DNA of 64,000 nt from sequence record NZ_CP145666.1. One strand, given 5' to 3'. Shown here one piece after another: positions 1 through 62,436 of the stretch. Source of the DNA: a plasmid. The position numbers and the translations under genes were made by a program. Below the pieces are notes generated by a model. That model was not told the origin of the DNA and did no database searches. It was given only the letters and a program-made list of their open reading frames with translations. How positions within the stretch are numbered: the stretch's first letter is position 1; the number at the start of each line of letters is the position of its first letter.

Positions 1-269
1 TATACGTATCCGCTTAACGAACAAGAACCTCACGCGCGTCTTTCATCAGGGCCCGAATCGATGACGATTCATCATGGCCGTTTATAGTACCGCAGTCTCT
101 CCCCTTTATTTTTACTGAAGAGCAGACAGAAACCATAAATACCGGCTTTGACATGCCGGGGAAGTCCTTATAGTACAATAATTTTCGATATCCAAACTGA
201 CCCCAAGTAAGGACGGTCGCGCCTGTGGTGGTTTTATCTCCGTGGAGCGCCTGGCCCCGGCCATAATTG

Positions 270-2857: not shown

Positions 2858-3748
2858 ATGAATATCTCAACAACTTTCCAGACGCTGGAGAGCGAGATCA
2901 CACAACTTCGTGGAGTGCTGGGTTCCCGGCTTCCGCTCAAGGCGAGTGTCTGCGTCCTGCCAGCCGTTGCTGATGGCGAAGAAGATATGGCCATCGAACA
3001 CATCATGCCTGAGCTGAAACAGGGACACGATGCTGTCCATGCTGCCTGCGCGGCATACGCTGACCTGCATATCAGGGATGGCTATTCGCAGAAGTCCGCT
3101 CGGCGCACTACCGGCGTATTATGGTACGACAATACAGATGCGGAATTCTCTCAGCTGGTTACCCGTTTGGTGACATCCATCAACCAGCATAAAGAGAGCA
3201 TTCAACGCCACATCATCGAAAACTACGGTGGTGATCGCCGACCGGAATACATGCGCTTCAACGCGCTGCATAGCGCCTGCCCTGGTGTCATGACCCTGCA
3301 TCTCTATCGGCAGCTGCGTATGTTTGATAATGCTAACGTCAATCTGGTCAGTTTCGGCTGGAGGCAAAAGACGCTTTTTAGCAGGGTTAACAAAATCGAG
3401 TTGCTCCAGAAGATGGGCAAGGACATCGAGGAAGATGAAGATAAATCAGTCAGACTCAACTCGTTGATTAAGGCTATTGCGCGTGTACCGGAAGAAAAGC
3501 TTCGCTTACGCCGTCCGGTTAAAGTGCATCCAGCTGCAAACATCGCGATGGCTGATCCTGAACACCCCGACCAGATACTGCGTCTTTCTGCCGCTTCATC
3601 TATGCCGTTCATTATCATTCAGGATGAGCACGTGAAAATTCGGCCATTGCCAGAGTTCGTGGCCAATGAAGTAAAGCCGAGGAGTAACCGCCTCAAGACA
3701 GATGTGATCGGTATATTCCACGGCGAAAGTATCGAAATGATTCTCTGA
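2858..3748 (+). CDS. tus: Tus-family DNA replication terminus site-binding protein homolog
   Basis: Alignable blocks with E. coli Tus: GVLWYDNTD vs GVLCYQVDN, GWRQKTLF vs GWANKHII, LRLRRPVKVHPAA vs LKIKRPVKVQPIA, and a similar C-terminus. Divergent overall. Confidence 0.6.
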   Translation: MNISTTFQTLESEITQLRGVLGSRLPLKASVCVLPAVADGEEDMAIEHIMPELKQGHDAVHAACAAYADLHIRDGYSQKSARRTTGVLWYDNTDAEFSQLVTRLVTSINQHKESIQRHIIENYGGDRRPEYMRFNALHSACPGVMTLHLYRQLRMFDNANVNLVSFGWRQKTLFSRVNKIELLQKMGKDIEEDEDKSVRLNSLIKAIARVPEEKLRLRRPVKVHPAANIAMADPEHPDQILRLSAASSMPFIIIQDEHVKIRPLPEFVANEVKPRSNRLKTDVIGIFHGESIEMIL

Positions 3749-3841
3749 CCACACCGGCCAAAGGACTGGCCGTATTCCCCCCTCATAATTTCGTCACTCG
3801 CCGTCCATGCCATACCCTGAAACTAATATTGAAAATTCATT

Positions 3842-4441
3842 ATGTTCAGCAAGGAATGTGGCGTGAAATACTTTGAATGTGCGCTCAGGTTCAGAATCGC
3901 CCCAGGTGACGTGTATGGGATCCACCAGCAACTGGATAAGGTAGTCCAGGAACGTTCTGGGTCGCGACTCCCATACACCTTCTACTCTCGCAAACAAAGT
4001 GCCTCCGACACCCAGGTTGTTCTGAGAACGGCTGTTGCACTCGGGCTCCCTGGCGAAGTCATGAAGGAAATCATGTTTGTGTCTGGCCAGAAAATTCGAA
4101 TCTGCGGCTCGCTGGCCACTATTCGACGCGAGGAAGCTGGAGGCCGGAAAAGAGAGATTTGTCCACCTGCCCATGAACTCCCGGATTATATCCACTATCA
4201 CCTGGAACGGGCCGGAGTGATCTGTGGACGGTTACGTATCGTTCGAAGCACCAAGTTCCATATTATTAAGCCCGGGAGCGTTGGCCGTACATCCCACAAG
4301 ATCATTGTACCGATGAGCCAGTACGATGCTGAATGCGTGATTGAAGATGTCGGCGCACTTGAACAGGCATACGCTTTCGGGATCGGCAGAAAGCGGATAT
4401 TCGGCTTTGGCTATATGAACAGCATCGAAGTGCTTTCCTGA
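3842..4441 (+). CDS. Cas6e (CasE/Cse3)-like RAMP endoribonuclease homolog, solo
   Basis: 199 aa, same length as CasE. N-terminal DVYGIHQQL matches CasE DLYQLHQGL, including the catalytic His. C-terminal loop GIGRKRIFGFG fits the RAMP GhGxxxxxGhG motif, as in CasE GIGPAKSMGCG. No other cas genes or CRISPR array nearby. Confidence 0.5.
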   Translation: MFSKECGVKYFECALRFRIAPGDVYGIHQQLDKVVQERSGSRLPYTFYSRKQSASDTQVVLRTAVALGLPGEVMKEIMFVSGQKIRICGSLATIRREEAGGRKREICPPAHELPDYIHYHLERAGVICGRLRIVRSTKFHIIKPGSVGRTSHKIIVPMSQYDAECVIEDVGALEQAYAFGIGRKRIFGFGYMNSIEVLS

Positions 4442-4567
4442 ACAGGCCATTAAGCATAGTTATTATCTGAATTTCAAACCGACTCGCAAACTTACGGCAT
4501 TAACACTTCTGATACACCCTTTAAATGCTGTAAACTGTTGTAGCCCTTACTAAATCGTAAGAGTGGG

Positions 4568-4703
4568 GATTTGCAGCCCCGACTAATGACACGCCGTTCA
4601 TGTACTTGAACGGTTCGCACTCGCTCGCCTGTTTTTTGTCAATGGTGGGTCGGGGCGTGGGAGCCTTACGGCTCGCCAGTCGTCATTAGCTGGTACTGCA
4701 AAC
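4568..4703. other. structured intergenic element (nested inverted repeats), possibly an ssDNA promoter/ssi-like site or structured RNA
   Basis: TTTGCAG...CTGCAAA outer arms, TAATGAC...GTCATTA inner arms, CCCCGAC...GTCGGGG, and a 7-bp stem hairpin CCGTTCA-tgtact-TGAACGG at 4594-4613. Confidence 0.4.
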
Positions 4704-4729
4704 CATGTTCCGATTCACCACCAAAGGAA

Positions 4730-4987
4730 ATGGAGATGGAAAAACAGGACTGGCATAAGGCAGACATCATAGCTGCGCTACATAAGAAAGGTTTGTCACT
4801 TGCCTCACTGAGTAGGGCTAACGGTCTTTCAAGCAGCACTCTGGCAAATGCACTGACACGTGACTGGCCTAGAGGCGAGATCATCATCGCTAATGCAATT
4901 GGTGAAGAACCTCAAGAAATATGGCCAACCCGATATTTTGATAAGGCAGGAATGCCGATCAAGAGAATCATAAGAAAACCGGTTTAA
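4730..4987 (+). CDS. Ner/Nlp-family small DNA-binding regulator
   Basis: DWHKADIIAALHKKGLSLASLSR...WPRGE...IWPTRY is the Ner-family signature. Confidence 0.7.
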   Translation: MEMEKQDWHKADIIAALHKKGLSLASLSRANGLSSSTLANALTRDWPRGEIIIANAIGEEPQEIWPTRYFDKAGMPIKRIIRKPV

Positions 4988-10416: not shown

Positions 10417-10740
10417 ATGCCTAAAGACGATGTTGCAACAATCATAATCCAGAATGGGTTGACGCATAAAGTAAATGTGATCTGCAAATTCAGCGCACAA
10501 ATCGACAATCAAATGTTCTCATTCATCATCCATCGCACATTAAGCGTATGTCGATATGCGCTTGTCTGTAAGGCAACAGGCCAAAGAATTGCAGTTCTTG
10601 ATACCAGTCGAGTAAAGGCACTTGGTATGGAAGCAGCAGGTAAACTAGCGCTATCAGATCTGGCCTCATCATTAGGCGAGACTAGACTTGCTGCGATTCT
10701 GACAAATTCACTTCAGAGCAGGAGCGCGGCAAGTGAGTGA
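10417..10740 (+). CDS. hypothetical protein, translationally coupled to the PAPS-reductase-family gene
   Basis: Overlaps the downstream start by 8 nt. Confidence 0.35.
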   Translation: MPKDDVATIIIQNGLTHKVNVICKFSAQIDNQMFSFIIHRTLSVCRYALVCKATGQRIAVLDTSRVKALGMEAAGKLALSDLASSLGETRLAAILTNSLQSRSAASE

Positions 10741-11803
10741 TTTAATCGACGATAACTTTATTATTCCTGCACTGAGTAGCATAGCAGGCATCACCACGCC
10801 ACTATCAGGACAAACGTACAGGAACGCTCCAGATATCGACATATCTTGCTATGACGTGATAATCATTTGCCTTAGCGGCGGAAAAGACTCCATAGCCTGC
10901 CTTCTCCACTTAATTGACATCGGGGTCGATCTGTCCAGGGTGGAACTCTGGCATCACGATGTTGATGGCCGCGAGGGAAGTACTTTAATGGACTGGCCAT
11001 TTATGGCCGACTACAACCGCAAAATAGCTTCAACATTTCAGATACCGTTGATGTTCTCCTGGCTTCAGGGAGGAATGGAAGGTGAGATGCTGAAAGAGAA
11101 TGGCTACAGTCGCCCGCAATGTATCGAAACCCCAGATGGATTAATAATCGCGGAACGTGATATCCAGCGAAGCACTCCCGCCACGCGACTTCGGTTCCCT
11201 CAGCAATCACCAAGCCTTAAAACACGTTGGTGCTCATCAGCACTAAAAATTGATGTTGGTCGGCGAGCACTCACAAATCAGAGACGCTTTGACGGAAAAA
11301 AGGTGCTTTTTATTACGGGGGAAAGGAGAGCGGAAAGCTCTAATAGATTCAATTACTTACAACTGGAGCCACATACCAGCAGTTGCAAAAAAAGACAAGT
11401 TGATGCCTGGAGGCCAGTACTTGAATGGTCTGAAGAACAAGTCTGGGAGATTTTAGCAAAACATCGTGTTACAGCCCCAGTACCGTATCGTCTTGGATGG
11501 GGTCGCAGTTCATGCTTAACGTGTATATACAACAGTGCTCGCATATGGGCAACCATCAAACATTATTTCCCCGAGCGTATTCACGCAATGGCCAACTATG
11601 AAAACCGCTTTGGGGTCACTATCAGTCGTAAACGAATAAATGTTCTGGATCTAAGCCAGAATATTTCTCCTATTAATATCACGGATGAGGAAGCGCTGCT
11701 GCAAGCGGTAAATCCGGTCTATACATTGCCCGTCATTAACATGTCAAAAGAATGGGTGCTACCTGGTGGGGCGTACAACCGGGAGAAATGCGGGTCAGAC
11801 TAA
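10733..11803 (+). CDS. phosphoadenosine-phosphosulfate reductase family PP-loop ATP pyrophosphatase domain protein (IbrA/DndC-like fold)
   Basis: PP-loop motif CLSGGKDS. The C-terminal Cys cluster (CLTCIYNSAR) is typical of MGE-borne PAPS-reductase-like proteins. Confidence 0.65.
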   Translation: MSDLIDDNFIIPALSSIAGITTPLSGQTYRNAPDIDISCYDVIIICLSGGKDSIACLLHLIDIGVDLSRVELWHHDVDGREGSTLMDWPFMADYNRKIASTFQIPLMFSWLQGGMEGEMLKENGYSRPQCIETPDGLIIAERDIQRSTPATRLRFPQQSPSLKTRWCSSALKIDVGRRALTNQRRFDGKKVLFITGERRAESSNRFNYLQLEPHTSSCKKRQVDAWRPVLEWSEEQVWEILAKHRVTAPVPYRLGWGRSSCLTCIYNSARIWATIKHYFPERIHAMANYENRFGVTISRKRINVLDLSQNISPINITDEEALLQAVNPVYTLPVINMSKEWVLPGGAYNREKCGSD

Positions 11804-31852: not shown

Positions 31853-33025
<1,173 letters not shown>

Positions 33026-33425
33026 CTAGCAGTAGACCGTACGCATCGGTCACTTCCCATCCTTTAGTAGGTATTTTTTCAATACGTTCGCCGCGCGCAC
33101 CCGCGCGTAGCCATAGCAACGGCGCAATGCGAACAAAGGCCAAGTTGTGGCTAACCGACTTCTCAGCTTCGTAGGTCAGAGTGAAAAACTCGGCATTTTC
33201 CTCAAAACCGTCAGACATTGGGAACTCGTCTGTAAACCTATAATTGACCTTAATCGGTTGTTCATTCGGCGTTTTGCCTGTGATAGCAGCTTGTACACGT
33301 GGTTTGGTGATATAATCACAGATCCCCCACTTTTCCCAATCAGGATCTCCAGGCCTTAAGCCCTGTTCGCGCAATTTTTTCTGTTCGTCGGCAGCGACTT
33401 CGTTGTTAGTGACGGAGATGCACTG

Positions 33426-33643
33426 GCGACGACCACCACCTCCGCCGCGACCGTGGCGGCGTCCGCACCCTGTTCGTGGTGATGTTCCTGGTGACAGCCT
33501 GCGTGGCGATGCTCTTCACTTTTGCAGCAGCCTGCATGGTGCTCACTGTGGCGGCTTTCGTGGTGATGTCCTTCACCCTTGCAGCAGCCTTCGTGTTGGT
33601 GCTCTGTATGTTTACAGCAACCTTCATGATGGTTTTGCATCAT
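33426..33643 (-). pseudogene. yqjI: 5' remnant of yqjI/nfeR (Ni-responsive PadR-family regulator): His/Cys-rich N-terminus only, frameshifted and truncated
   Basis: MMQNHHEGCCKHTEHQHEGCCKGE... matches the E. coli YqjI N-terminus MSHHHEGCCKHEGQ...HEGCCKGE. GRRHGRGGGGRRQ is encoded in a different frame. The PadR winged-helix domain is absent after about 33422. Confidence 0.6.
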
Positions 33644-33810
33644 CGTCTCCTGATGTTATTTAGATATATCTAATTTATATCTAAAGTTTATCGACTTGCA
33701 AGTCTATAAAATAATTTTTGTTTAATTTAATGATTATTAATGGTTTTTATGGATTGCTGATAGCTGTTTAATCTCAAGCTGACTATATCAAAAAAGTGCT
33801 TGCAATCTTT

Positions 33811-33829
33811 TTGATTAGCAATCATTATC
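33811..33829. promoter_or_regulatory. Fur box in the yqjI-yqjH divergent intergenic region
   Basis: TTGATTAGCAATCATTATC matches the Fur consensus GATAATGATAATCATTATC (right half 9/9). yqjH is Fur-regulated in E. coli. Confidence 0.45.
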
Positions 33830-33879
33830 ATTTAAAAATAAATTTAGATATATCGTATTATCTTCACGAAGGCGAAAAA

Positions 33880-34650
33880 ATGACAAAAAACACCTCACGC
33901 TACCCACAGCGCGTGCGTAACGAACTACGTTTTCGCGAATTAACCGTGCTGCGCGTTGAGCGTATCGGCCAGGCGTTCCAGCGGATCGTGCTGGGGGGCG
34001 AGGCGCTGGATGGCTTTGTTTCACAAGGTTTTGACGACCACACCAAACTGTTTTTCCCGCAGGCGGGCAGCGTATTTACGCCGCCGGAAGTGACCGACGA
34101 AGGCATTAACTGGGGCGAGGGCGTGCGCCCGGCGACCCGCGACTACACGCCGCTGTACGATGCCGAACGCCACGAGCTGGCTTACGATTTTTATATCCAC
34201 GATGGCGGTATTGCCAGCCGCTGGGCGCTGGAAGCCAACATCGGCGATAAGCTGGTGATCGGCGGGCCGCGCGGCTCGCTGGTGGTGCCGGAAGATTACG
34301 CCTGGCAGCTTTATGTCTGTGACGAGTCGGGCATGCCGGCGCTGCGCCGTCGCCTGCTGGGATTACGTCAGCTGCCGGTGACGCCGCAGGTGACGGCCAT
34401 CGTCACCGTCGCGGATGCTTCGTATAAAGATTATCTGGCGGATCTCGACGGCTTTAATATCGAATGGGTGGTAGGCCACAACCCGGCGTTCGTCGCCGAG
34501 CGGCTGGCTCAGGTCAAGGTGCCGTCAGAAGATTATTTTATCTGGCTGACCGGAGAAGGCGGCGTGGTGAAATCGCTGCTGGCGCGCTTTGAGGAGCCGA
34601 GTATCGATCAGCAACTGGTGCGTTCGCAGGCGTACTGGCATAGCAAATAA
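33880..34650 (+). CDS. yqjH: NADPH-dependent ferric-chelate reductase / siderophore-interacting protein YqjH (NfeF)
   Basis: Collinear with E. coli YqjH (RYPQRVRNELRFRELTVLRVERI; YVCDESGMPALRRRL; YFIWLTGEG). Confidence 0.85.
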   Translation: MTKNTSRYPQRVRNELRFRELTVLRVERIGQAFQRIVLGGEALDGFVSQGFDDHTKLFFPQAGSVFTPPEVTDEGINWGEGVRPATRDYTPLYDAERHELAYDFYIHDGGIASRWALEANIGDKLVIGGPRGSLVVPEDYAWQLYVCDESGMPALRRRLLGLRQLPVTPQVTAIVTVADASYKDYLADLDGFNIEWVVGHNPAFVAERLAQVKVPSEDYFIWLTGEGGVVKSLLARFEEPSIDQQLVRSQAYWHSK

Positions 34651-34702: not shown

Positions 34703-34753
34703 CTTTCAATGGTGTTATGTCGCCCCGGTAAGCGCAGCGCCACCGGGTGAGGC

Positions 34754-36403
34754 TTAGCGTTCCGCCAGCGCCTTAAACACCATCGCCACCGCGTGGGCGC
34801 CGGGGTCCATATTGCCGAGCAGGCTCTCGCTATTGAGATAGGAGGCGCGTCCGGCGCCGGCTTTGCTCGACTGGCAGGTGCGATCCGCGCCGGCCTGCGC
34901 CGCGGCGAAAGCGGCCTGCAGATTATCCGGTTCGGCCAGCAGCGCCGCCAGCGCCGGCTGTAGAGCGTCAATCATCGTCCGGTCGCCCTCATCGGCGCCG
35001 CCGTAAAATTTCATCTGCCCCAGACCGGCGTTCAGCGCTTCCGCCATGCTGGCGCCTTGCTCCAGCTTCTGCCCGGCGGCGGTGAAGAAAATCGACATCA
35101 ATACGCCGCTGGAGCCGCCCATCACCACCGTCAGGCGTTCGCCAATTAGCGCGAACAGCGTGGGTAAATCATTGAGCGGCAGTTGCTGGCGTTGCAATAG
35201 AGCGGCAATCTCACGCGCGCCAGCGGCGAAAGTGGAGCCGGTATCGCCGTCGCCCACTTTGGCGTCAAGCGCGTTGAGATGGGTTTCGAGGCCGGAGAGG
35301 GTGCTGGTCACCTGCGCCACGTAATCGCCCACCTGCGGGTTGGCCGATGGCGTAAAGGCGACGCGTGCGCTGGCGAGCGCGGACGGCATGATATTAACAG
35401 CCCGCGGCTGCACCGGCTTCTGCCAACTGGCGGTTTCGACATCCGACAGCAGCGCCTTTTCAATGCTCTCTTCCAGCACGATAGTGGTCAGCGAGAAGCC
35501 TTTCATATCCAGCGCCGTTACCAGCGAAGCCGGGCCAATCAACCAGTCAACGCGCGCATGGAGTGGGGTGTTGGCCAGCTCGCGGGTCAGAATCGCCATC
35601 TCGGCCACCGACACGCCGCCGAGATTATTGAGCATCACCGCCAGGCGGCCGGTTTCAGGTAGGGCGGCGGTCAGCTTCTCTACCATAATCTGCATGATTT
35701 CCGCGCTGTTATGGGTCGCGATCGTCGAGGCTCCCGGTTCGCCGTGGATGCCCATCCCCAGCTCGGCGTGGCCGGGCTGATGGCGCGGCGCGCTTTCCGC
35801 TTCCTGCGGCAGGTGACAGCTGGCCAGCGCCACCCCGATGCTGGCGGTATGGTTGGCGGCGTATTGCGCTTCACGCAGGACGGTGGCGAGGTTGAAGCCG
35901 CGCTCGGCGAAATAACCCGCCACCTTATGCACAAGAATAGTCCCGGCGATACCGCGCGGCTGTTTGTTATCCGGCAGCGAAATATCGTCGCCGACGATCA
36001 GCATCTCTACGTTATAGCCAAGACGGCGCGCTTTCTCCGCCGCGAGGCCGAAGTTAAGCCGATCGCCGGTGTAGTTTTTAACGATCAGCAGACAGCCCGC
36101 CTCGCCGGTCACCGCCTGAATCGCGGTGAGTACCGCATCGACGCTCGGCGAGGCGAACAGATCGCCGCAGACCGCGGCGGTCAGCATGCCTTTACCAATA
36201 AAGCCGACGTGCGCCGGTTCATGGCCGGAGCCGCCGCCGGAAATCACCGCCACGTTGTTTTTATTCAGATCGCGGCGTACCACTACACGGATCGCCGGGT
36301 CGCTCTCCAGGCGGGCGAGGTTGTTCCACGGGCTGGCAATAATGGTTCCCTCGATCACGTCGTTAACGAGGCTGGCGCGCTGGTTAAAAAAGAATTGAGA
36401 CAT
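34754..36403 (-). CDS. dhaK: ATP-dependent dihydroxyacetone kinase, two-domain Dak1-Dak2 (Citrobacter/Klebsiella DhaK type)
   Basis: 549 aa. N-terminal DhaK domain ([21 protein letters not shown]) and C-terminal DhaL domain (GDGDTG). Confidence 0.9.
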   Translation of the reverse strand: MSQFFFNQRASLVNDVIEGTIIASPWNNLARLESDPAIRVVVRRDLNKNNVAVISGGGSGHEPAHVGFIGKGMLTAAVCGDLFASPSVDAVLTAIQAVTGEAGCLLIVKNYTGDRLNFGLAAEKARRLGYNVEMLIVGDDISLPDNKQPRGIAGTILVHKVAGYFAERGFNLATVLREAQYAANHTASIGVALASCHLPQEAESAPRHQPGHAELGMGIHGEPGASTIATHNSAEIMQIMVEKLTAALPETGRLAVMLNNLGGVSVAEMAILTRELANTPLHARVDWLIGPASLVTALDMKGFSLTTIVLEESIEKALLSDVETASWQKPVQPRAVNIMPSALASARVAFTPSANPQVGDYVAQVTSTLSGLETHLNALDAKVGDGDTGSTFAAGAREIAALLQRQQLPLNDLPTLFALIGERLTVVMGGSSGVLMSIFFTAAGQKLEQGASMAEALNAGLGQMKFYGGADEGDRTMIDALQPALAALLAEPDNLQAAFAAAQAGADRTCQSSKAGAGRASYLNSESLLGNMDPGAHAVAMVFKALAER

Positions 36404-36477
36404 AGTGGTTCCTGATCAGTAAGCGAAAACTCACCCTCCGGAGGCGGGCCCCCGGAGTGGTAACGGTCAAAGTGGAT

Positions 36478-37896
36478 TTAGCGACGAATAAGACGTTGCA
36501 GACGCATATCGAGCGTGATGGCTTCGCCAGGCTGAATATCATTCAGCGCTTCGCCCTGCTGGCATAGCCAGGCGATCCCCGCCGCGCGGGCGATAATCGC
36601 GCCGTGGGCCTGTTCGCTGCCGTCGCGCAGGCACAGGCCGGTGACCTTGCTGGCATCCAGTTGGAGTACAGTCGAGGGATAAATATTGTCGGCGATAATA
36701 ATCGTCGGCTCACTGGCGAATGGCAGCGTCTCCTTAATACCCTGCAGATGGCGCAGCGTGCGCTGCAGAATATCGTCGACATCGATATAACGGGCCTGCA
36801 GATAGGCGTCATCCAGCTGACGATACTGCTGGCTGAGCTCCATCAGCACTTGATGCCACGCCCATTCCGCCGAGCACTGTTCGGTGAGCAGGCGATCGTT
36901 GGCGGCATCAAACAGATCTTCATCGTCGAGCAAGGTGTGATGACCGGCGAAGATCGCCGCGATATCGGCGTTAAATTTGTGTTCCGCCAGCTCGGTGAGC
37001 GCATTGAGATCGGCCAGCGTCTGGTCGATCGCCTGGCGCAGGCGCTGCTGCTCGCGGGCGATGTCGGCGGCGGCGGGGAGCGCCGGTTGGATCGGCGCCT
37101 GCGGATAAATCATCGCGGCGCCTTCAACACGCGCAGGTATGGCGGGTTCCGCTGTCGGCTGCGCCTCCGGCGACTCGCCGAAGTTATCGGCGGCCAGCGC
37201 CTGAAACGCCGCCAGCGCCGCATCGGCGTCCGGACCGCGGGCCAGCAGGCGCAGCTTATCGTGGCGGCGCACCTGTAGCAGAGCGATTTGATTCAGACTG
37301 TCCGGGGTGACGCATTTGCCGTTTTTCTCCAGCACCAGGTCGGCGTTAAAACCCGCCAGCGCGGCGACCAGCTTTGATGCCGGACGCACGTGCAGGCCGT
37401 TGTGATTGTTAATAATGACTGAAACCGATTTAGCATCGCCGTCGTCAGCAAGCGTTGGGGCGGCGGCGTCAGGCGTGTGCGAAGGTAAACCCAGCTGAAC
37501 CCGCTTGGCTTCCAGGGCGTTCATGGCATCGGCGATAACTTTGTCGATCCCGGCGCCGGAGGCGGCGCTGACGGTGGCCGCCAGCGTCCCTTCGACCAGC
37601 GGCGCGGCGCACAGCCGCACCTTTGCCGCCATCGCCGGATCGAGCAGATCGAGGGCGGTTTCGGCGCTGAGCAGGGCGCTGCCGATATCCATCATCACCA
37701 GAACATGGTCGGTATCGGCGACGGATTCGATCGCCTCCATGACTTTAATCGGATCGGTGCCGATCGGGCTGTCGGGATCGTCGATCCCGGCGGCGATCGC
37801 CAGCTTACAGCCATCGTTCATTAACATCTGCCGGGCCAGTTCTCCGACACCTTCGCCCAGCCGGGCGCTATGAGAAACAATAACCAGGTTTACCAT
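36478..37896 (-). CDS. dhaM: PTS-dependent DHA kinase phosphotransfer subunit DhaM (EIIA-HPr-EI-like)
   Basis: MVNLVIVSHSARLGEGV..., 472 aa. The six-frame ORF extends upstream, but the start is set by the DhaM alignment and an RBS. Confidence 0.85.
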   Translation of the reverse strand: MVNLVIVSHSARLGEGVGELARQMLMNDGCKLAIAAGIDDPDSPIGTDPIKVMEAIESVADTDHVLVMMDIGSALLSAETALDLLDPAMAAKVRLCAAPLVEGTLAATVSAASGAGIDKVIADAMNALEAKRVQLGLPSHTPDAAAPTLADDGDAKSVSVIINNHNGLHVRPASKLVAALAGFNADLVLEKNGKCVTPDSLNQIALLQVRRHDKLRLLARGPDADAALAAFQALAADNFGESPEAQPTAEPAIPARVEGAAMIYPQAPIQPALPAAADIAREQQRLRQAIDQTLADLNALTELAEHKFNADIAAIFAGHHTLLDDEDLFDAANDRLLTEQCSAEWAWHQVLMELSQQYRQLDDAYLQARYIDVDDILQRTLRHLQGIKETLPFASEPTIIIADNIYPSTVLQLDASKVTGLCLRDGSEQAHGAIIARAAGIAWLCQQGEALNDIQPGEAITLDMRLQRLIRR

Positions 37897-37906
37897 CGCG
37901 ATTTCC

Positions 37907-38539
37907 TTACTCTTTGGCGGCGGCAGCCAGCATCTGAACCATAAACAGCACCGAGGTCGCGCCGGGATCCTGATGCCCGATGCTGCGCTCGCCGAGATAG
38001 CTGGCGCGGCCTTTACGCGCCTGCATGGTGATGGTGGCGTGGGCGGCGCGCTCGGCCACTTCGCAGGCGGCATCCAGCGCGGCAGGGATAGACAGATGTT
38101 GCTCGCTGGAATGACGCAGGGATTCCACCACCGGCAGCCAGACGTCGCACATCGTCTTATCGCCCGGCTCCGCTTTACCACGGTTGACGACGCCGTCCGC
38201 GCCTTCGCGGATCATCTGATAAAGCTCGTCGAGGGTCAGGCTCTGATGCGCCTGGGTGACCTGGGCGGCGCGGATAAAGAAGGTGCCGAACAGCGGGCCG
38301 CTGGCGCCGCCGACGTTGGAAAGCAGCGTCATCCCGGTATTCTTGAGAATAAAACCGATGTCTTTATCGGCGATCGACGGCAGCTTTTCGACCACTTTGC
38401 TGAAGCCGCGATGCATATTGAGGCCGTGGTCGGCGTCGCCGATCTCTTTATCAAGGCCGGTGAGAAAATCGCTCTGTTTGGTGAAAATGTCGCCACAGCG
38501 GTACAGCCAGTCGACGATTTGCGTTCTGTTCAGTGACAT
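37907..38539 (-). CDS. dhaL: DHA kinase ADP-binding subunit DhaL
   Basis: 210 aa, DKEIGDADHG motif. Confidence 0.9.
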   Translation of the reverse strand: MSLNRTQIVDWLYRCGDIFTKQSDFLTGLDKEIGDADHGLNMHRGFSKVVEKLPSIADKDIGFILKNTGMTLLSNVGGASGPLFGTFFIRAAQVTQAHQSLTLDELYQMIREGADGVVNRGKAEPGDKTMCDVWLPVVESLRHSSEQHLSIPAALDAACEVAERAAHATITMQARKGRASYLGERSIGHQDPGATSVLFMVQMLAAAAKE

Positions 38540-38549
38540 GTCGTGCTCC

Positions 38550-39620
38550 TTATTTTCCCCAGTTCAGCGCTGGGGTATGGACCGGGGCGTCCCATAACGC
38601 CAGTGTGTCATCATCCGCTTTCAGCAGGGTGATGGAGAAACCCGCCATATCCAGCGAGGTGCAGTAGCTGCCGATGAGGTTGCGTTCAATCACAATGCCG
38701 GACGCTTCGCAGCGCTGGGCAAGGCGGTTGTAAACGCCGTACAGTTCGGAAAGCGGGGTGGCGCCGAGGTTATTGACCAGCGCGATAACCCGATCGCCGT
38801 TTTGCAGCGCGGTTTTGCTCTGTTTCACTTCCTGCCACGCTCCCTTGACGTTATCCCACTGGCGCAGCGTGCGGCTGTATGCGCCGTTTTCCAGCAGGGT
38901 ATCGACCATCTCATCGACGGTTTGGTCGAGCGAGCTGAAGCGGCGGCGGTCGATACCCGGCTCGCCATGGATGCCGACGCCGAACTCCATCTCATCATCT
39001 TTCAGGGTAAAGGAGGGCTGTCCGGCGGCCGGTACGGTGCAGGCGCCCAGCGCGATGCCAATCGAGTGACCAAGGTTATTTAAACGGCGGCCCAGTTCAG
39101 CGCAGGCTTCCAGCGAGTCGCCGCGTTCGGCGGCGGCGCCGACCAGTTTTTCAATCAGCACGGTATTGGCGACGCCGCGGCGTCCGGCGGTATAGAGGCT
39201 GTCTTTTACCGCCACGTCGTCATCCACCACGACGGTGGTAACCTTAACGCCACTTTCGTGCAGCAGCTCGGTGGCGGTCTCAAAATTCAGGATGTCGCCG
39301 GTATAGTTTTTGATAATCAGCAGGACGCCTTCGCCGCCGTCAATCTGCATCGCGCATTCGAACATTTTGTCCGGCGTCGGCGAGGTGAAAATTTCCCCCG
39401 GACAGGCGCCGGAGAGCATGCCCTGGCCGATGTAGCCGCAGTGCATCGGTTCGTGTCCGCTGCCGCCGCCGGAGAGCAGCGCCACTTTGCCGGCGACCGG
39501 TGCATCAGCGCGGGTGACATAGACCGGGTCCTGGTGCAGCGTCAGTTCAGGATGCGCCTTCGCCAGGCCGATAAGCTGTTCACTCAGTACATCTTCCACA
39601 CGGTTAATCAGTTTTTTCAT
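38550..39620 (-). CDS. dhaK: DHA kinase dihydroxyacetone-binding subunit DhaK (PTS type)
   Basis: 356 aa, collinear with E. coli DhaK ([22 protein letters not shown]). Confidence 0.9.
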
Positions 39621-39726
39621 TGTTTATGCTCCGTAGGGTAGGGGGAGGTCGCCTGTCTATAAGGGTAGCCCGGCGATGTAGTGATTCTGGCTGAGCGGGC
39701 GCAAAATAAAATGCCGTCAAAATTGG

Positions 39727-39771
39727 TTCCATAACGGAACGTAGAAAAGAATTTTTGTTCCTTTATGGAAC
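39727..39771. promoter_or_regulatory. paired palindromes GTTCC-N5-GGAAC in the dhaKLM/dhaD divergent promoter (candidate DhaR sites)
   Basis: GTTCCATAACGGAAC at 39727-39741 and GTTCCTTTATGGAAC at 39757-39771. Analogous pair repeated at 41855-41900. Confidence 0.4.
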
Positions 39772-40176
39772 ATTAATTGCCGATAAACAGGAGAAATGCG
39801 AGCCAGCGCTAATAATTTGTCCGTTTTTTTCTGCTATCAGAAATGGGGCAAGGATGATTTTTTTCGCCATTGTGCCGCATTGAGGCGATTTTCTGCGTTA
39901 AAGAGGGGAGACGATAGCGGCTTTTTTGCCAAAATGATCCGATCGCGATCGCAATCCCATCGCTTTCTCAGTCACATTGTTTCAATGTGAAACGCATTAT
40001 TTTTTTATCTGTTTCAGAACAGAACAAAAAAGGGAAAAATTTTTTTCGCCGCGGCTCGCCCTACAGTGGATGCATCGCTCCGGCAGCGTGGCTGTAAGCG
40101 CCATTGATATCAGGCGCCGCGGCATGACGGCCTGGGCTCACGTGTCAACATACGCACTTATTTGAGGGTGAAAGGA

Positions 40177-41274
40177 ATGCTAAAAGTTATTCAATCTCCA
40201 GCCAAATATCTCCAGGGACCTGATGCCGCCATGCTGTTTGGCGAATACGCTAAAAACCTGGCCGACAGCTTTTTTGTTATCGCCGATGACTTCGTGATGA
40301 AGTTGGCGGGCGACAAAGTATTGAACGGCCTGCATAGCCACAATATTAGCTGCCATGCGGAACGGTTTAACGGCGAGTGCAGCCATGCGGAAATCAACCG
40401 CCTGATCGCCATTCTTAAGCAGCACGGCTGCCGCGGCGTGGTGGGTATCGGCGGCGGGAAAACCCTCGATACAGCGAAGGCGATCGGCTATTACCAGAAG
40501 CTGCCGGTGGTGGTGATCCCGACAATTGCCTCAACCGATGCGCCGACCAGCGCGCTGTCGGTTATCTACACCGAGGCGGGCGAGTTTGAAGAGTATCTGA
40601 TCTACCCGAAAAACCCGGATATGGTGGTGATGGACACGGCGATTATCGCCAAAGCGCCGGTACGCTTGCTGGTGGCCGGGATGGGCGATGCGCTCTCCAC
40701 CTGGTTTGAAGCCAAGGCCTGCTTCGATGCGCGAGCCACCAGCATGGCGGGCGGGCAGTCCACGGCGGCGGCCTTGAGCCTGGCGCGCCTGTGCTATGAT
40801 ACGCTGCTGGCGGAAGGCGAAAAAGCACGCCTGGCGGCTCAGGCTGGAGTGGTGACCGATGCGCTGGAGCGTATTGTCGAAGCCAACACCTATCTGAGCG
40901 GTATCGGTTTTGAGAGCAGCGGCCTGGCCGGCGCGCACGCGATTCACAACGGTTTCACCATCCTTGAAGAGTGCCACCATCTGTATCACGGCGAAAAAGT
41001 CGCTTTCGGCACCCTGGCGCAGCTGGTACTGCAAAATAGCCCGCTGGAAGAGATCGAAACCGTGATGGGCTTCTGTGAAAAAGTCGGCCTGCCGATCACC
41101 CTTGCCCAGATGGGCGTGAAAGAGGGTATCGAAAGCAAAATCCACGCGGTGGCGAAAGCCACCTGCGCGGAAGGCGAAACCATCCACAATATGCCGTTCC
41201 CGGTCACCGCGGATAGCGTCTACGCCGCCATCCTTACCGCGGACCTGCTTGGGCAGCAGTGGCTGGCGCGTTAA
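40177..41274 (+). CDS. gldA: glycerol dehydrogenase, paralog 1 (DhaD/GldA family)
   Basis: 365 aa iron-containing alcohol dehydrogenase family. About 93% identical to the copy at 42303-43400. Confidence 0.85.
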   Translation: MLKVIQSPAKYLQGPDAAMLFGEYAKNLADSFFVIADDFVMKLAGDKVLNGLHSHNISCHAERFNGECSHAEINRLIAILKQHGCRGVVGIGGGKTLDTAKAIGYYQKLPVVVIPTIASTDAPTSALSVIYTEAGEFEEYLIYPKNPDMVVMDTAIIAKAPVRLLVAGMGDALSTWFEAKACFDARATSMAGGQSTAAALSLARLCYDTLLAEGEKARLAAQAGVVTDALERIVEANTYLSGIGFESSGLAGAHAIHNGFTILEECHHLYHGEKVAFGTLAQLVLQNSPLEEIETVMGFCEKVGLPITLAQMGVKEGIESKIHAVAKATCAEGETIHNMPFPVTADSVYAAILTADLLGQQWLAR

Positions 41275-41320
41275 GTCTTTCACAAGGTTCTATGCCGCGG
41301 CGCATTGCGGCATCAACTCC

Positions 41321-41352
41321 TCCCTCCGGCAGCCGCTGCCGGAGGGTTTTGT
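41321..41352 (+). terminator. rho-independent terminator after the glycerol dehydrogenase paralog 1
   Basis: CCCTCCGGCAGCCGCTGCCGGAGGG followed by TTTTGTCGTTTT. Confidence 0.5.
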
Positions 41353-41387
41353 CGTTTTAACTGTGTTAACTCCAGCGGAAAAGGGAT

Positions 41388-41540
41388 ATGACAGCTCAGA
41401 CTCAGGGTGCGGAAAATGAAGTTTCAGCCGTTATCAGCCAGTCGTGGCATCGCTGCAGCAAATTTATGCAGCGTGAAACCTGGCAGGCGCCGCATCAGGC
41501 GCAGGGGCTGACCTTTGAATCGATCTGCCGTCGCAAATAA
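41388..41540 (+). pseudogene. dhaR 5' fragment (first 50 codons) ending at a recombination joint
   Basis: MTAQTQGAENEVSAVISQSWHRCSKFMQRETWQAPHQAQGLTFESICRRK* compared with the full DhaR N-terminus at 43490. Confidence 0.7.
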
Positions 41541-41742
41541 ACCCAACGTGCGCGGGTTCGTGTCCTGAACCGCCGCCGGAGATCACCGCCACGTTATTTT
41601 TGTTAAGGTCGCGGCGAACCACGATGCGAATGGCCGGATCGCTCTCCAGACGCGCCAGGTTATTCCACGGGCTGGTGATAATTGTACCGTCGATCACGTC
41701 GCTAACGAGATGGGGGCGTTGATTAAAAAAGAATTGAGACAT
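41538..41742 (-). pseudogene. 5' fragment (about 69 codons) of a second ATP-dependent dhaK allele
   Basis: MSQFFFNQRPHLVSDVIDG...[15 protein letters not shown], then loss of homology exactly where the dhaR' fragment ends. Confidence 0.7.
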
Positions 41743-41854
41743 AACGGCTCCTCGAGGTTGAGTGTAAGACAAACCCCCGAATGCATGTTCATGGTGCGGA
41801 GGCGATAGAGAGATTCTGGCGAAGTCAGCATGGAAAAAAACAACACGAAAATGA

Positions 41855-41900
41855 GTTTCATTACGAAACGTGATTGCTGTTTTTTGTTCCGAAATGAAAC
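41855..41900. promoter_or_regulatory. second copy of the paired palindromes (candidate DhaR sites) upstream of dhaD
   Basis: GTTTCATTACGAAAC and GTTCCGAAATGAAAC with the same spacing as at 39727-39771. Confidence 0.35.
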
Positions 41901-42302
41901 TTAATTAGGCGAGAAATCATCACAATGCGAACTCGCTCGACTTTTTCCTCCTGCGATCAGAGCAGGCCACACGGCGCAGTCAGTCTTTTTTGCGGGGCTT
42001 TACCCAGGATGGCGCGTAATTGGGGAAATTTATCATCGTGTTTGTCGGTAATTTCGCGGTAACGGAACGGATCGAGATCGCAAATCTCATTATTTTTGTG
42101 GTTAAGCGTTCCAATATGAAACGCATGTCATTTTTATCTGTTCCATATCAGAACAAAATGACGAAAGATTTTTTTGTACACGCCTCGCCATACAGTTATT
42201 ACATCGCTCCGGTACGTCCGCTTTCGCCGTCAACATCAGGCTAAACGGGTTAACGCCAGGGCTCACCATGTAAAAACATGTACTTATTTGAGGATGAAAG
42301 GA

Positions 42303-43400
42303 ATGCTAAAAGTTATTCAATCTCCAGCCAAATATCTCCAGGGTCCTGACGCTTCTACCTTATTTGGTCAATACGCTAAAAATCTGGCGGACAGCTTTTT
42401 CGTGATTGCGGACGACTTCGTCATGAAGCTGGCGGGAGAAAAGGTACTCAATGGCCTGCACAGCCATGACATTAGCTGCCACGCGGAACGCTTCAACGGT
42501 GAATGCAGCCATGTTGAAATTAATCGCCTGATTGCCATTCTGAAAAAACACGGTTGCCGCGGCGTGGTTGGGATTGGCGGTGGGAAAACGTTAGATACCG
42601 CCAAAGCAATTGGTTATTACCAGAAGCTGCCGGTAGTGGTGATCCCGACCATCGCCTCAACCGATGCGCCAACCAGCGCGCTGTCCGTTATCTATACCGA
42701 AGCGGGTGAGTTTGAAGAGTATCTGATCTACCCGAAAAACCCGGATATGGTGGTGATGGATACCGCAATTATTGCCAAAGCGCCGGTACGTCTGCTGGTG
42801 GCCGGGATGGGCGATGCGCTCTCGACCTGGTTTGAAGCGAAAGCCTGTTATGACGCTCGGGCGACCAGCATGGCGGGCGGGCAGTCCACCGTGGCGGCGC
42901 TGAGCCTGGCGCGCCTGTGCTATGATACCCTGCTGGCGGAAGGCGAAAAGGCACGCTTAGCCGCCCAGGCTGGCGTGGTGACCGATGCGCTGGAACGTAT
43001 TGTCGAAGCCAACACCTACCTCAGCGGTATCGGCTTTGAAAGCAGCGGCCTTGCGGGGGCACATGCCATCCATAACGGCTTTACGATTCTGGAAGAGTGC
43101 CACCATCTGTACCACGGTGAAAAAGTCGCCTTTGGTACGCTGGCGCAGCTGGTGCTGCAGAACAGCCCGATGGAAGAGATCGAAACCGTGCTGAATTTCT
43201 GTCAGAAAGTGGGCCTGCCGGTAACGTTAGCGGAAATGGGTGTGAAAGACGACATTGACGGCAAGATTATGGCCGTGGCTAAAGCCACCTGCGCAGAAGG
43301 TGAAACTATTCACAATATGCCGTTCCCGGTGACGCCTGAAAGCGTACATGCCGCTATTTTGACGGCAGACCTGCTGGGACAGCAGTGGCTGGCGCGTTAA
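42303..43400 (+). CDS. dhaD: glycerol dehydrogenase DhaD
   Basis: 365 aa, immediately upstream of dhaR as in the Klebsiella/Citrobacter dha regulon. Confidence 0.9.
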   Translation: MLKVIQSPAKYLQGPDASTLFGQYAKNLADSFFVIADDFVMKLAGEKVLNGLHSHDISCHAERFNGECSHVEINRLIAILKKHGCRGVVGIGGGKTLDTAKAIGYYQKLPVVVIPTIASTDAPTSALSVIYTEAGEFEEYLIYPKNPDMVVMDTAIIAKAPVRLLVAGMGDALSTWFEAKACYDARATSMAGGQSTVAALSLARLCYDTLLAEGEKARLAAQAGVVTDALERIVEANTYLSGIGFESSGLAGAHAIHNGFTILEECHHLYHGEKVAFGTLAQLVLQNSPMEEIETVLNFCQKVGLPVTLAEMGVKDDIDGKIMAVAKATCAEGETIHNMPFPVTPESVHAAILTADLLGQQWLAR

Positions 43401-43489
43401 TCGGGCACAGGTAAATTTACCCAGCATCTTCTCCCCCTCTGACAGTCTCTGCCGGAGGGGTTGTCTATGGCAAAACAGCGGAAAGGGAT

Positions 43490-45415
43490 ATGACGGCGCA
43501 CACGCATAGCATCGGGCAGGAAGTCTCTTCGGTTCTCGCCCAGTCCTGGCATCGTTGCAGCAAGTTTATGCAGCGGGAAACCTGGCAGGCGCCGCATCAG
43601 GCGCAAGGGCTGACCTTTGAGTCGATTTGTCGTCGCAAGACGGCGCTGCTGACGATTGCGCAGGCCGCGCTGGAAGATGCCTGGGAGTTTATGGACGGTC
43701 GTCCGTGCGCACTGCTGATTCTGGATGAATCAGCCTGTATTCTCAGCCGTTGCGGCGATCCGCAGACGATAGAACAGCTGGCGGAGCTTGGATTTCGCGA
43801 CGGCAGCTATTGCGCGGAAAGCATTATCGGCAGTTGTGCGCTGTCGCTGGCGACGATGCCGGGGCAGCCGACAAAAACCTCTGGCGCTCAGCACTTTAAA
43901 CAGGCGTTGCATCCGTGGTCGTTCTGCTCGACGCCGGTGTTCGATAACCATGGGCATCTGTTTGGCTCCATCTCATTGTGCTGTCTGGTAGAACATGAGT
44001 CCGTTTCTGATTTATCCCTGACGCTGGCGATTGCCAGAGAAGTCGGCAATTCATTGCTGACCGACAGCCTGCTGGCAGAATCCAACCGCCATCTGAACCA
44101 GATGTACGGGCTGCTGGAGAGCATGGATGATGGCGTGATGGCCTGGAATGAGCAGGGGGTGTTGCAGTTCCTCAATGCGCGCGCGGCGCTGCTTTTGCAT
44201 CTCGACGCGCAGGCCAGCCAGGGCAAAAACATTCACGACCTGCTCAATATGCCCATGCTGCTGCGTCGGGCAATTAAACATGCCCGCGGTCTGAATCACG
44301 TCGAAGTCACTTTTGAAAGCCAGCACCAGTTTGTTGATGCTGTTATCACCCTGAAGCCGATTGTTGAGGAGCAGGGCAACAGCTTTATCCTGCTGCTGCA
44401 CCCGGTGGAGCAAATGCGTCAGCTGATGACCAGCCAGCTTGGTAAGGTGAGCCACACCTTTGAGCAGATGTCGACGGACGATCCGGAAACCCGACGCTTG
44501 ATCCATTTTGGTCGCCAGGCGGCAAGGGGGAGTTTCCCGATCCTGCTGTGTGGGGAAGAGGGCGTAGGGAAAGAGCTGCTGAGCCAGGCCATTCACAATG
44601 AAAGCGAACGCGCCAGCGGACCGTATATTGCCGTGAACTGTCAGCTGTATGCCAACAGCGTGCTGGGGCAGGATTTTATGGGCAGTGCGCCTACCGATGA
44701 TGAAAATGGTCGGTTGAGCCGCCTTGAGCTGGCGAACGGCGGCACGCTGTTTCTGGAGAAAATTGAATATCTGGCACCGGAGCTGCAATCCGCGCTGTTA
44801 CAGGTGATTAAGCAGGGAGTATTAACCCGTCTTGATGCCCGTCGGCTGATTCCGGTGGATGTGAAAGTGATCGCCACCACTACGGTTGATCTCGCTAATC
44901 TGGTGGAGCAAAACCGCTTTAGCCGCCAACTGTATTACGCGCTGCACTCTTTTGAGATTGTTATCCCGCCGCTACGGGCGCGGCGTAACAGTATTCCCTC
45001 GCTGATTTATACGCGACTGAATAGCCTGAAAAAACGCTTCTCATCCAGCCTGAAGATCGACGACGACGCGCTGGCACAACTGGTGGCTTATTCGTGGCCG
45101 GGCAATGATTTCGAGCTGAACAGCATTATCGAAAACATCGCTATCAGTAGCGATAACGGGCATATCCGGCTGAGTAATTTACCTGATTATCTGTTTGCCG
45201 AGCGTCCCGGTCTGGAGACCGCGTCTTCCCTGCTGCCAGCCAGCCTGACGTTTACCGCTATCGAAAAAGAGGCGATTATCCATGCCGCCCGTGTCACCAG
45301 TGGGCGAGTACAGGAGATGTCGCAACTGCTGAATATTGGTCGCACCACCTTGTGGCGTAAGATGAAGCAGTACGACATCGACGCCAGCCAGTTTAAGCGC
45401 AAACATCTGGAGTAG
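43490..45415 (+). CDS. dhaR: dha regulon transcriptional activator DhaR (GAF-PAS-AAA+-HTH)
   Basis: 641 aa with an AAA+ core (GEEGVGKE Walker A-like) and a C-terminal HTH. Confidence 0.9.
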   Translation: MTAHTHSIGQEVSSVLAQSWHRCSKFMQRETWQAPHQAQGLTFESICRRKTALLTIAQAALEDAWEFMDGRPCALLILDESACILSRCGDPQTIEQLAELGFRDGSYCAESIIGSCALSLATMPGQPTKTSGAQHFKQALHPWSFCSTPVFDNHGHLFGSISLCCLVEHESVSDLSLTLAIAREVGNSLLTDSLLAESNRHLNQMYGLLESMDDGVMAWNEQGVLQFLNARAALLLHLDAQASQGKNIHDLLNMPMLLRRAIKHARGLNHVEVTFESQHQFVDAVITLKPIVEEQGNSFILLLHPVEQMRQLMTSQLGKVSHTFEQMSTDDPETRRLIHFGRQAARGSFPILLCGEEGVGKELLSQAIHNESERASGPYIAVNCQLYANSVLGQDFMGSAPTDDENGRLSRLELANGGTLFLEKIEYLAPELQSALLQVIKQGVLTRLDARRLIPVDVKVIATTTVDLANLVEQNRFSRQLYYALHSFEIVIPPLRARRNSIPSLIYTRLNSLKKRFSSSLKIDDDALAQLVAYSWPGNDFELNSIIENIAISSDNGHIRLSNLPDYLFAERPGLETASSLLPASLTFTAIEKEAIIHAARVTSGRVQEMSQLLNIGRTTLWRKMKQYDIDASQFKRKHLE

Positions 45416-46277: not shown

Positions 46278-46293
46278 TGCGCCCCCTTATTGA

Positions 46294-47457: not shown

Positions 47458-47479
47458 AATTTACCTTCTTAGATTTAAA

Positions 47480-49968: not shown

Positions 49969-49979
49969 GGCGGTACACA

Positions 49980-50995: not shown

Positions 50996-51005
50996 CGGAG
51001 GCAGC

Positions 51006-52817: not shown

Positions 52818-52870
52818 ACGGGCGCTCGCGCCAGCCTCTCTCTTTAACGTGCTATTTCAGGATGCCGATA

Positions 52871-53674: not shown

Positions 53675-53684
53675 AGCGGGACCC

Positions 53685-62423: not shown

Positions 62424-62436
62424 GCACACAAAAATA

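Follow-up and report, generated by a model that had tools for sequence, protein, structure and literature searches.

A solitary, tus-linked gene predicted to encode a type IV-A3 Cas6 beside a c4 antisense RNA on CRISPR-less megaplasmids

Introduction

[quoted passage not shown] The question arose from a stretch of 64,000 nucleotides of plasmid DNA (sequence record NZ_CP145666.1), called the window throughout, in which a cas6 gene is followed by a hairpin-rich intergenic element. An earlier note, made from the letters alone, had described the gene as an orphan Cas6e-like endoribonuclease on a mobile backbone and had joined it with the structured element into one candidate module. Our analysis indicates that the gene belongs to a solitary, tus-linked lineage related to the Cas6 of type IV-A3 systems, with an active site predicted to be intact, and that the structured element is a separate module around a c4 antisense RNA.

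The plasmid protein has the predicted fold and active site of Cas6

Profile searches placed the cas6 product in the Cas6 family of type IV-A3 systems. The PADLOC hidden Markov model (HMM) Cas6_0_IVA3 (PDLC01711, typeIV_Cas6) matched over its full length the 199-amino-acid (aa) product of the longest open reading frame (ORF) with E 1.1e-38, and residues 1-188 of the 192-aa form favoured below on model positions 2-187 of 189 with E 4.1e-39. The type I-E models stayed under their cut-offs, with 23.2 bits against 25 for PF08798 (Pfam CRISPR_assoc, Cas6e) and 14.2 bits against 45.2 for TIGR01907 (casE). When 1.84 billion cluster representatives were searched exhaustively with HMMER, only 42 relatives came back, so the family is small. 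Residues H28, G125, G180, G188 and G190 are invariant in both family alignments (23 and 28 members), Y25, Y45, K143 and G182 are invariant or nearly so, and the plasmid protein retains every family-invariant residue. Residues are numbered on the 199-aa form; Y25 and H28 correspond to Y18 and H21 of the 192-aa form.

An AlphaFold2 model built on the family alignment reached a predicted local distance difference test score (pLDDT) of 95.2 and a predicted template modelling score (pTM) of 0.87, and it showed the double ferredoxin/RNA recognition motif (RRM) fold of Cse3/CasE. The top 23 Foldseek matches in the PDB were all Cse3/CasE proteins (2y8w_A, E 1.1e-11), and the match to E. coli CasE within Cascade (4u7u_D) had a template modelling (TM) score of 0.72 at a root-mean-square deviation of 3.5 Å. 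A search of the PDB by sequence found just a weak C-terminal match; it missed the IV-A3 Cas6 because that protein could not be modelled in the cryo-electron microscopy structure (PMC11519345).

The motifs that had first suggested a Cas6 were borne out by hhalign, which aligned the family profile to E. coli K-12 CasE with a probability of 94.5% and E 7.5e-8. The catalytic-histidine block DVYGIHQQL, likened in the earlier note to DLYQLHQGL, falls within GDVYGIHQQL, which is paired with RDLYQLHQGL so that H28 stands opposite the catalytic H20 of CasE. The glycine-rich loop typical of repeat-associated mysterious proteins (RAMP), GIGRKRIFGFG, is paired with GIGPAKSMGCG of CasE and also aligns with GIGRGKSYGCG of T. 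fusca Cse3. The type I-E enzymes (E. coli CasE, T. thermophilus Cse3) share the double-RRM fold, the histidine equivalent to H20 and the C-terminal loop, whereas identity to the orphan is only about 14-16%, the type I-E models are missed, and the orphan lies outside any I-E operon. The label 'Cas6e-like' thus holds for the fold, the His/Tyr block and the loop, while the family scores point to IV-A3 Cas6 instead of type I-E. Both labels are compatible because the Cas6 of IV-A3 is regarded as recruited from type I-E (PMC7038947). Sequence and model together show a predicted Cas6e-fold endoribonuclease of the type IV-A3 Cas6 lineage with its active site intact, and a functional, catalytically competent enzyme is the best explanation of these data.

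The start codon has probably been misplaced and the annotation shortened

The earlier note had counted 199 aa from ATG 3842 and had found the protein to be the same length as CasE. This reading frame exists on the plus strand, but its start most likely lies at GTG 3863, which gives 192 aa, because ATG 3842 is not conserved and every homologue begins at the equivalent MKY/MIF position. In L005, a diverged syntenic copy, ATG 3842 is replaced by CAG whereas GTG 3863 and its Shine-Dalgarno sequence AAGGAA are kept. The length match with CasE is therefore coincidental.

The RefSeq annotation from the Prokaryotic Genome Annotation Pipeline (PGAP) covers only 4061..4441 (126 aa) under the name 'type I-E CRISPR-associated protein Cas6/Cse3/CasE', and is misleading. 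It leaves out the N-terminal 66 residues, the catalytic histidine among them; in some GenBank records cas6 is labelled hypothetical.

cas6 stands alone on its replicon

The earlier note had reported no other cas genes or CRISPR array within 30 kb. This statement can be extended to the 64-kb window and to a complete 179-kb plasmid of the same family (NZ_CP056246.1), and what had been called an orphan on a mobile backbone is a true orphan that sits on a plasmid. Among the 70 plausible ORFs of the window, cas6 alone matched a Cas profile within the 25 of 29 matched families that were listed, and no CRISPR-like array, tandem or spaced, was present. The neighbours of cas6 are tus and a gene for a Ner-like helix-turn-helix (HTH) protein, with no gene of an I-E or IV-A3 cas operon beside it. 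The annotation of the 179-kb plasmid contains no other cas genes, and a tblastn search of that plasmid with all type IV proteins of pNDM-MAR gave cas6 as the sole match. Among the Citrobacter plasmid records of PLSDB, cas6 is found in 75, Csf2 in 3 and type IV DinG in 5, so that at most 3–5 of the 75 cas6 records could hold Csf2 or DinG. From these sequences we conclude that cas6 is solitary at whole-replicon level.

CRISPR repeats were likewise missing. The IV-A3 repeat (29 nt, GTATTCCCCCCG...CGGGGGTTATCGG; given as GTATTCCCCCCGTGTGCGGGGGTTATCGG and variants) was taken from the pNDM-MAR array, which the same scan recovered as a positive control, and it had no match in the window with up to 3 mismatches. 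The best ungapped similarity to I-E or IV-A3-like repeat units was just 18-20 of 29 positions, and the Rfam families of CRISPR direct repeats (CRISPR-DR) gave no match in the window at E up to 5.

Three candidates for array remains were rejected. An array-like run on the 179-kb plasmid (L012 32043-32490, at about 132.1 kb) consists of 7 tandem 56-bp units without spacers; lying directly upstream of parA, these are probably centromere-type iterons of a partition site. Two CCCCG...CGGGG hairpins at 53.7 and 54.8 kb, the only ones of this kind in the window, are unrelated to CRISPR repeats. The 11 nt GTATTCCCCCC at 3772-3782 are the same as those that open the IV-A3 repeat, but they were dismissed as a chance match: neither L004 nor L005 conserves them, and such a match also arose in 44 of 100 shuffled sequences.

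The orphan lineage is conserved next to tus and is under purifying selection

About 100 large plasmids (180-435 kb) carry the cas6 region with 100% identity; most come from Citrobacter, and the other hosts are Klebsiella, Enterobacter and E. coli. The block umuD-umuC-tus-cas6-c4-HTH is preserved in two diverged syntenic copies, in C. amalonaticus Y19 (95.5% aa identity) and on a Logan contig (80% aa identity). None of the three lineages has a frameshift or stop in cas6. Ratios of nonsynonymous to synonymous substitution rates (dN/dS, Nei-Gojobori) for cas6 were 0.115 at a dS of 0.18 and 0.100 at a dS of 1.17, compared with 0.09-0.20 for umuD and 0.04 for tus. By this sequence comparison cas6 is under purifying selection.

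Providencia, Moellerella, Morganella and Proteus have a second set of orphans on MOBH plasmids, with 42-49% identity in Cas6. Here the layout is tus-(DUF6710 or 107-aa ORF)-cas6-TetR, and neither DinG, Csf2 nor an array was found near these Morganellaceae genes. Tus is 46% identical between the Citrobacter-type and Morganellaceae plasmid groups, so both genes have diverged to a similar degree. A scan of genome collections returned only 4 loci. About 35 Morganellaceae records carry related copies; among the matches listed, most of these are truncated by transposons. Every orphan cas6 has tus as a conserved neighbour on its upstream side, with none or one gene in between in L003, L005, L008, L009, L015 and L017.

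Complete IV-A3 loci (pNDM-MAR, Citrobacter sp. wls619, pKOX and Raoultella) served for comparison. Their Cas6 belongs to the same HMM family, is about 190 aa long, has the Y-x-x-H block and the glycine-rich loop, and is likewise found on MOBH megaplasmids near umuDC or tus. The order in these loci is csfX-cas6-dinG-csfY-csf2-array; they adjoin umuDC in pNDM-MAR (L006/L007) and lie directly upstream of tus in pKOX (L020/L024, NZ_CP060422.1), and the tus/umuDC neighbourhood of MOBH plasmids thus seems to be a recurrent home of IV-A3 components. The orphan, however, is just 30-38% identical to the complete-locus Cas6, and whereas complete loci have dinG, csf1, csf2, csf3 and an array, it has none of these nearby or elsewhere on its plasmid and always follows tus. 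In a neighbour-joining tree the tus-linked orphans formed one clade (70% bootstrap) as sister to the complete-locus Cas6 (66%), not nested within it, and both together received 74% bootstrap.

The structured element downstream is a c4 antisense RNA module

The earlier note had described nested inverted repeats immediately downstream of cas6 and had regarded them as a possible partner of the enzyme. The repeats are present: the longest pairs 4570-4590 with 4682-4702, and a 7-bp hairpin lies at 4594-4613. The proposed link to cas6 was not supported, since the element is a homologue of the c4 antisense RNA (Rfam RF01695) preceded by a1/b1-type boxes, and the Morganellaceae orphans have a TetR gene in its place. 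The match spans model positions 1-87 of 87 with E 7.9e-10 for the whole window, and RF01695 was matched in L005 (62.4 bits) and L004 (61.5 bits) as well. The downstream arm of the longest inverted repeat corresponds to the loop of c4 hairpin 2 and the single-stranded tail. The composite a1/b1 pattern occurs once in the 64 kb, where chance alone would give 0. For the c4 RNA of P1 this arrangement has been described, and Weinberg et al. 2010 (PMC2864571) list it under the name 'c4-a1b1' motif; as that motif is itself without an Rfam model, our assignment follows the published architecture. The minimum free energy (MFE) fold of 4560-4740 (181 nt) has -75.2 kcal/mol (z = -4.07; 0 of 200 shuffled sequences as stable), and the boxes and the c4 loop/tail segments are paired in it.

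About 210 nt (~4524-4729) are 98-99% identical in three diverged plasmids, although the flanking genes have a dS of ~0.9-1.4, and changes in the 7-bp hairpin in L004 and L005 are confined to the loop. The first ~85 nt past the cas6 stop codon are far less conserved. Such constraint on 4524-4729 is, by this comparison, unusually strong for a plasmid intergenic region, and homology and conservation together show the hairpin-rich element to be a genuine RNA of a known class that is under strong constraint.

The 3' end of the c4 RNA lies 5 nt before the start codon of the HTH gene, whose ribosome-binding site (RBS) directly follows, and the module would control this Ner-like regulator. Like the c4 of the P1/P7 immI region, the RNA gives a full-length covariance-model match above the gathering score and has loop and tail complementarity to two boxes ~100 nt upstream. 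The P1/P7 RNA is phage-borne, whereas this one resides on a plasmid backbone; P1 c4 regulates icd/ant, whereas here the downstream gene encodes a Ner/SfsB-like HTH protein; and the a2/b2 target of P1 overlaps the RBS of the regulated gene, whereas no second composite site of the a2/b2 type was found in the window, only isolated one-mismatch boxes at 5006, 5092 and 5155, downstream of the c4 RNA.

A scan of ~25,000 tiles for c4 targets in trans gave the 3' end of umuC (window ~2596-2640) as the best predicted duplex, at -35.2 kcal/mol; the cis a1/b1 site reached -27.0 and the unrelated site that came next -28.9. The value was -36.1 kcal/mol in L004 and weaker, -29.3 kcal/mol, in L005. Given the number of tiles, the umuC duplex is not clearly beyond chance and may be a chance match.

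In Providencia and Moellerella a TetR gene follows the orphan cas6 instead, and C4 RNA gave no match in the scanned Proteus locus L003. Because c4 and cas6 are not co-conserved, we rejected the c4 RNA as the Cas6 substrate; on this pattern the element is probably a module separate from cas6.

What might a solitary Cas6 do?

Enzymes of the Cas6e type normally hold on to their product by its 3' hairpin, and they nucleate the assembly of the effector. Since the plasmid has neither a CRISPR array nor a repeat-like hairpin, its Cas6 would act in trans, on I-E or IV-A3-type repeat hairpins of the host chromosome or of co-resident plasmids. As these enzymes remain on the hairpin and the Csf or Cascade partner subunits are missing, a non-cognate Cas6 would capture or mis-process the CRISPR RNAs (crRNAs) of host or rival, and captured crRNAs would mean weaker CRISPR interference against the plasmid that encodes it. 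Such competition for, or hijacking of, crRNA by a 'cas-gene-derived anti-CRISPR' is the most likely role that our analysis suggests, and we put it forward tentatively. The more specific proposal, that the tus-linked lineage is a plasmid anti-CRISPR directed against type I-E and/or IV-A3 pre-crRNAs, is possible but must be called somewhat unlikely on the present analysis.

Several observations make the idea plausible. In type IV-A3 systems Cas6 caps the crRNA at its 3' end in the effector (PMC11519345). In Thermus, the non-cognate Cas6-2 represses a type I-B system because it competes while Cascade assembles (PMC12102369), an experimental Cas6 precedent for the competition over crRNA and complex assembly that is only proposed for the orphan here. 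Cas5, Cas8b and Cas3 homologues borne by mobile genetic elements act as anti-CRISPRs (Acrs; bioRxiv 10.1101/2023.06.24.545427), and these (AcrIB3, Cas5-like; AcrIB4, Cas8b-like; AcrVIA2, Cas3-like; Katz et al.) are likewise solitary Cas homologues on mobile elements. The orphan and IV-A3 plasmids have overlapping host ranges (Klebsiella, Citrobacter, Enterobacter, E. coli). It is the Thermus precedent, together with selection on the catalytic residues and the lack of a substrate in cis, that lends the anti-CRISPR idea its plausibility.

A number of findings nevertheless weigh against it. A set of 38 unique IV-A3 spacers taken from six arrays, a small and not decisive sample, gave no match longer than 14 nt in the window, on the full plasmid or in the orphan loci, and so no hint within this sample of targeting by IV-A3 systems. 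The orphan is no truncated mimic but full-length with its active site intact; no known acr gene or anti-CRISPR-associated (aca) gene adjoins it, Ner/HTH_35-type regulators go unmentioned in a 2026 survey of Aca proteins, and viral contigs (IMG/VR) contain no relatives of this cas6. These computed probes (spacers, acr/aca neighbours, viral contigs) give inhibition no direct support. The catalytic histidine is not needed for pure sequestration, yet it is retained, and the constant linkage to tus is left unexplained by competition. Finally, among the matches listed, most Providencia and Proteus copies are truncated by Tn3-family transposons or otherwise incomplete. The Tn3-family cut lies at about codon 126-131 (L003 10001-10423) and recurs in ~20 Providencia, Proteus and Morganella plasmid records, many of the NDM type, so loss of cas6 is tolerated in that lineage; intact copies persist in other Providencia and Moellerella plasmids.

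The link to tus is better explained if Cas6 has been domesticated for work outside CRISPR immunity, binding or cleaving a hairpin in plasmid transcripts, for example of the tus operon, or in host transcripts, and serving as a site-specific RNase or translational regulator. We regard this as an unlikely but serious rival. The linkage is stable across backbones that have diverged to ~46% Tus identity, very short intergenic gaps in Moellerella suggest an operon, and purifying selection has kept the active site intact on a plasmid without any CRISPR component. A conserved hairpin also lies between tus and cas6 at 3755-3772, possibly a tus 3' stem-loop; it is, however, unlike the substrates of Cas6e or IV-A3 Cas6. 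More generally, no non-coding element near cas6 is common to the Citrobacter-type and Morganellaceae-type loci: a scan for conserved substrates between them found a Tn3-type terminal repeat (window 166-205) as the only shared element. We also know of no precedent for a domesticated Cas6e, which counts against such a role.

Alternatively, the orphan might help in trans, supplying crRNA processing to I-E arrays of the host or to IV-A3 plasmids with a damaged cas6. IV-A3 systems already use the host I-E Cas1/2e in trans (bioRxiv 10.1101/2023.06.23.546257), their loci are often disrupted by insertion sequence (IS) elements, and help of this kind would agree with the conserved catalytic histidine. 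At 30-38% identity to the complete-locus Cas6, though, docking onto a foreign Csf2 or Cas7 is doubtful, a benefit to the carrying plasmid is not evident, and the orphan plasmids themselves lack effector genes, which makes this role improbable.

Is cas6 then the decaying, functionless remnant of a IV-A3 locus that once stood in the tus/umuDC neighbourhood? The complete loci that adjoin umuDC in pNDM-MAR or tus in pKOX, on related MOBH backbones, would fit, as would the many transposon-truncated Morganellaceae copies and the shortened ORF called by PGAP. Decay is hard to reconcile with dN/dS of ~0.1 over a dS of ~1.2, with open frames in three lineages and with the retention of all invariant residues. 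The orphans also form their own clade rather than nesting within the complete-locus Cas6, and since they lie downstream of tus whereas the pKOX cas locus lies upstream, a simple deletion is not sufficient to produce them. The putative repeat relic GTATTCCCCCC, unconserved and expected by chance, offers no help, and we consider a remnant quite improbable.

Processing of the adjacent structured transcript (4568-4703) by Cas6 is very improbable: it has in its favour the physical adjacency, the strong structure and extreme conservation of the element and the maturation of P1 c4 RNA from a longer precursor, but the c4 antisense RNA follows a well-described logic of its own, its hairpins are unlike the G/C-rich stem of I-E or IV-A3 repeats, and neither the Morganellaceae orphans with TetR downstream nor the scanned Proteus locus pair cas6 with C4. 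In addition, c4 RNAs occur widely among phages and proteobacteria, without any Cas6 (593 representatives, PMC2864571).

Other features of the window

Table 1. Features at and around cas6 in the window (positions of the 64-kb stretch)
Feature	Position	Strand	Remarks
tus, replication terminus-binding protein	2858..3748	+	Pfam Ter E 5.5e-45
Hairpin CGGCCA-aaggac-TGGCCG	3755..3772	+	just past tus stop; stem invariant, one loop base variable in L004/L005
Longest cas6 ORF	3842..4441	+	ATG start, 199 aa
Shine-Dalgarno AAGGAA	3851..3856	+	6 nt upstream of GTG 3863; kept in L004 and L005
cas6, type IV-A3 Cas6 family, Cas6e fold (predicted)	3863..4441	+	192 aa from GTG start
Catalytic block DVYGIHQQL	3908..3934	+	H28 invariant in 28 members; pairs with CasE H20
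C-terminal glycine-rich loop GIGRKRIFGFG	4379..4411	+	G180, G188, G190 invariant
a1/b1-type boxes TTTGCAG ... CTAATGAC	4570..4590	+	complementary to c4 loop and tail; module separate from cas6
7-bp hairpin CCGTTCA-tgtact-TGAACGG	4594..4613	+	in c4 leader, between boxes and c4 RNA
c4 antisense RNA homologue, Rfam RF01695	4638..4725	+	62.9 bits, gathering score 45
Ner/SfsB-like winged-HTH regulator	4730..4987	+	Pfam HTH_35 E 7e-33; NCBIfam SfsB E 5.5e-31, below cut-off

The window carries umuDC, ssb, dnaN, a Dam methylase and other orphan methyltransferases, rdgC and genes resembling reductases of 3'-phosphoadenosine 5'-phosphosulfate (PAPS). The umuDC, ssb and orphan methyltransferase genes that the earlier note had placed around cas6 are thus present, with ssb and the methyltransferases ~13-20 kb away from it, and the window contains no relaxase gene, oriT or tra genes that would define the plasmid leading region likened to these surroundings in that note. 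PAPS-reductase-family proteins are encoded on the plasmid backbone at 10733-11803 and at L012 44243-46678, and may be relevant to DNA modification or anti-defence; one ORF of the window weakly matches the defence profiles BrxP and SspD (E 1e-10 to 1e-13).

A dha (glycerol/1,3-propanediol) island occupies 34-53 kb (~34750-53700) and is missing from the 179-kb family plasmid. It encodes two DhaK-type kinases, a DhaM resembling phosphotransferase system (PTS) proteins, a DhaR-like sigma-54 activator, Fe-alcohol dehydrogenases, and the large subunit of a glycerol/diol dehydratase with its reactivase. Three imperfect 57-nt direct repeats (33480-33626; second and third copies 72% and 63% identical to the first) lie in the intergenic region between the ORFs 32979..33374 (-) and 33796..34650 (+). 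The 40 nt at 166-205 share 95% identity with a site that Moellerella and Morganella plasmids have ~170 nt upstream of tus. In L001 they lie where a Tn3-family transposon ends, and they are most likely a transposon terminal inverted repeat. On the minus strand, 62430-62560 gave a sub-threshold match to the Hfq-binding small RNA sraL (30.3 bits, gathering score 39, E 0.007).

Discussion

Parts of this locus were already known: cas6 is in RefSeq, albeit shortened and under a type I-E name, and both the Cas6 family and the c4 RNA have been described. A conserved, tus-linked, solitary Cas6 lineage, predicted to be catalytically intact, on CRISPR-less megaplasmids was not found in the type IV literature consulted here. 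The P1-type c4 antisense RNA module shows in addition that such RNAs reside on these plasmid backbones, under unusually strong constraint.

Interest in the orphan would rise clearly only with a demonstrated effect on CRISPR immunity. If it processes a non-CRISPR RNA instead, it would be a rare case of a Cas6 put to a different use by domestication. In clinically important Enterobacteriaceae, plasmids use type IV-A3 systems as weapons against other plasmids, and these systems borrow parts from the type I-E systems of their hosts. Should the tus-linked Cas6 interfere with crRNAs, it would be, to our knowledge, the first natural Cas6-based Acr on plasmids, and a Cas6 competitor would add a new mechanistic class to the plasmid-borne anti-CRISPRs. 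It would then protect its plasmid from host immunity as well as from rival plasmids that carry IV-A3 systems, and would account for the coexistence of some megaplasmids with hosts and rivals that bear CRISPR systems.

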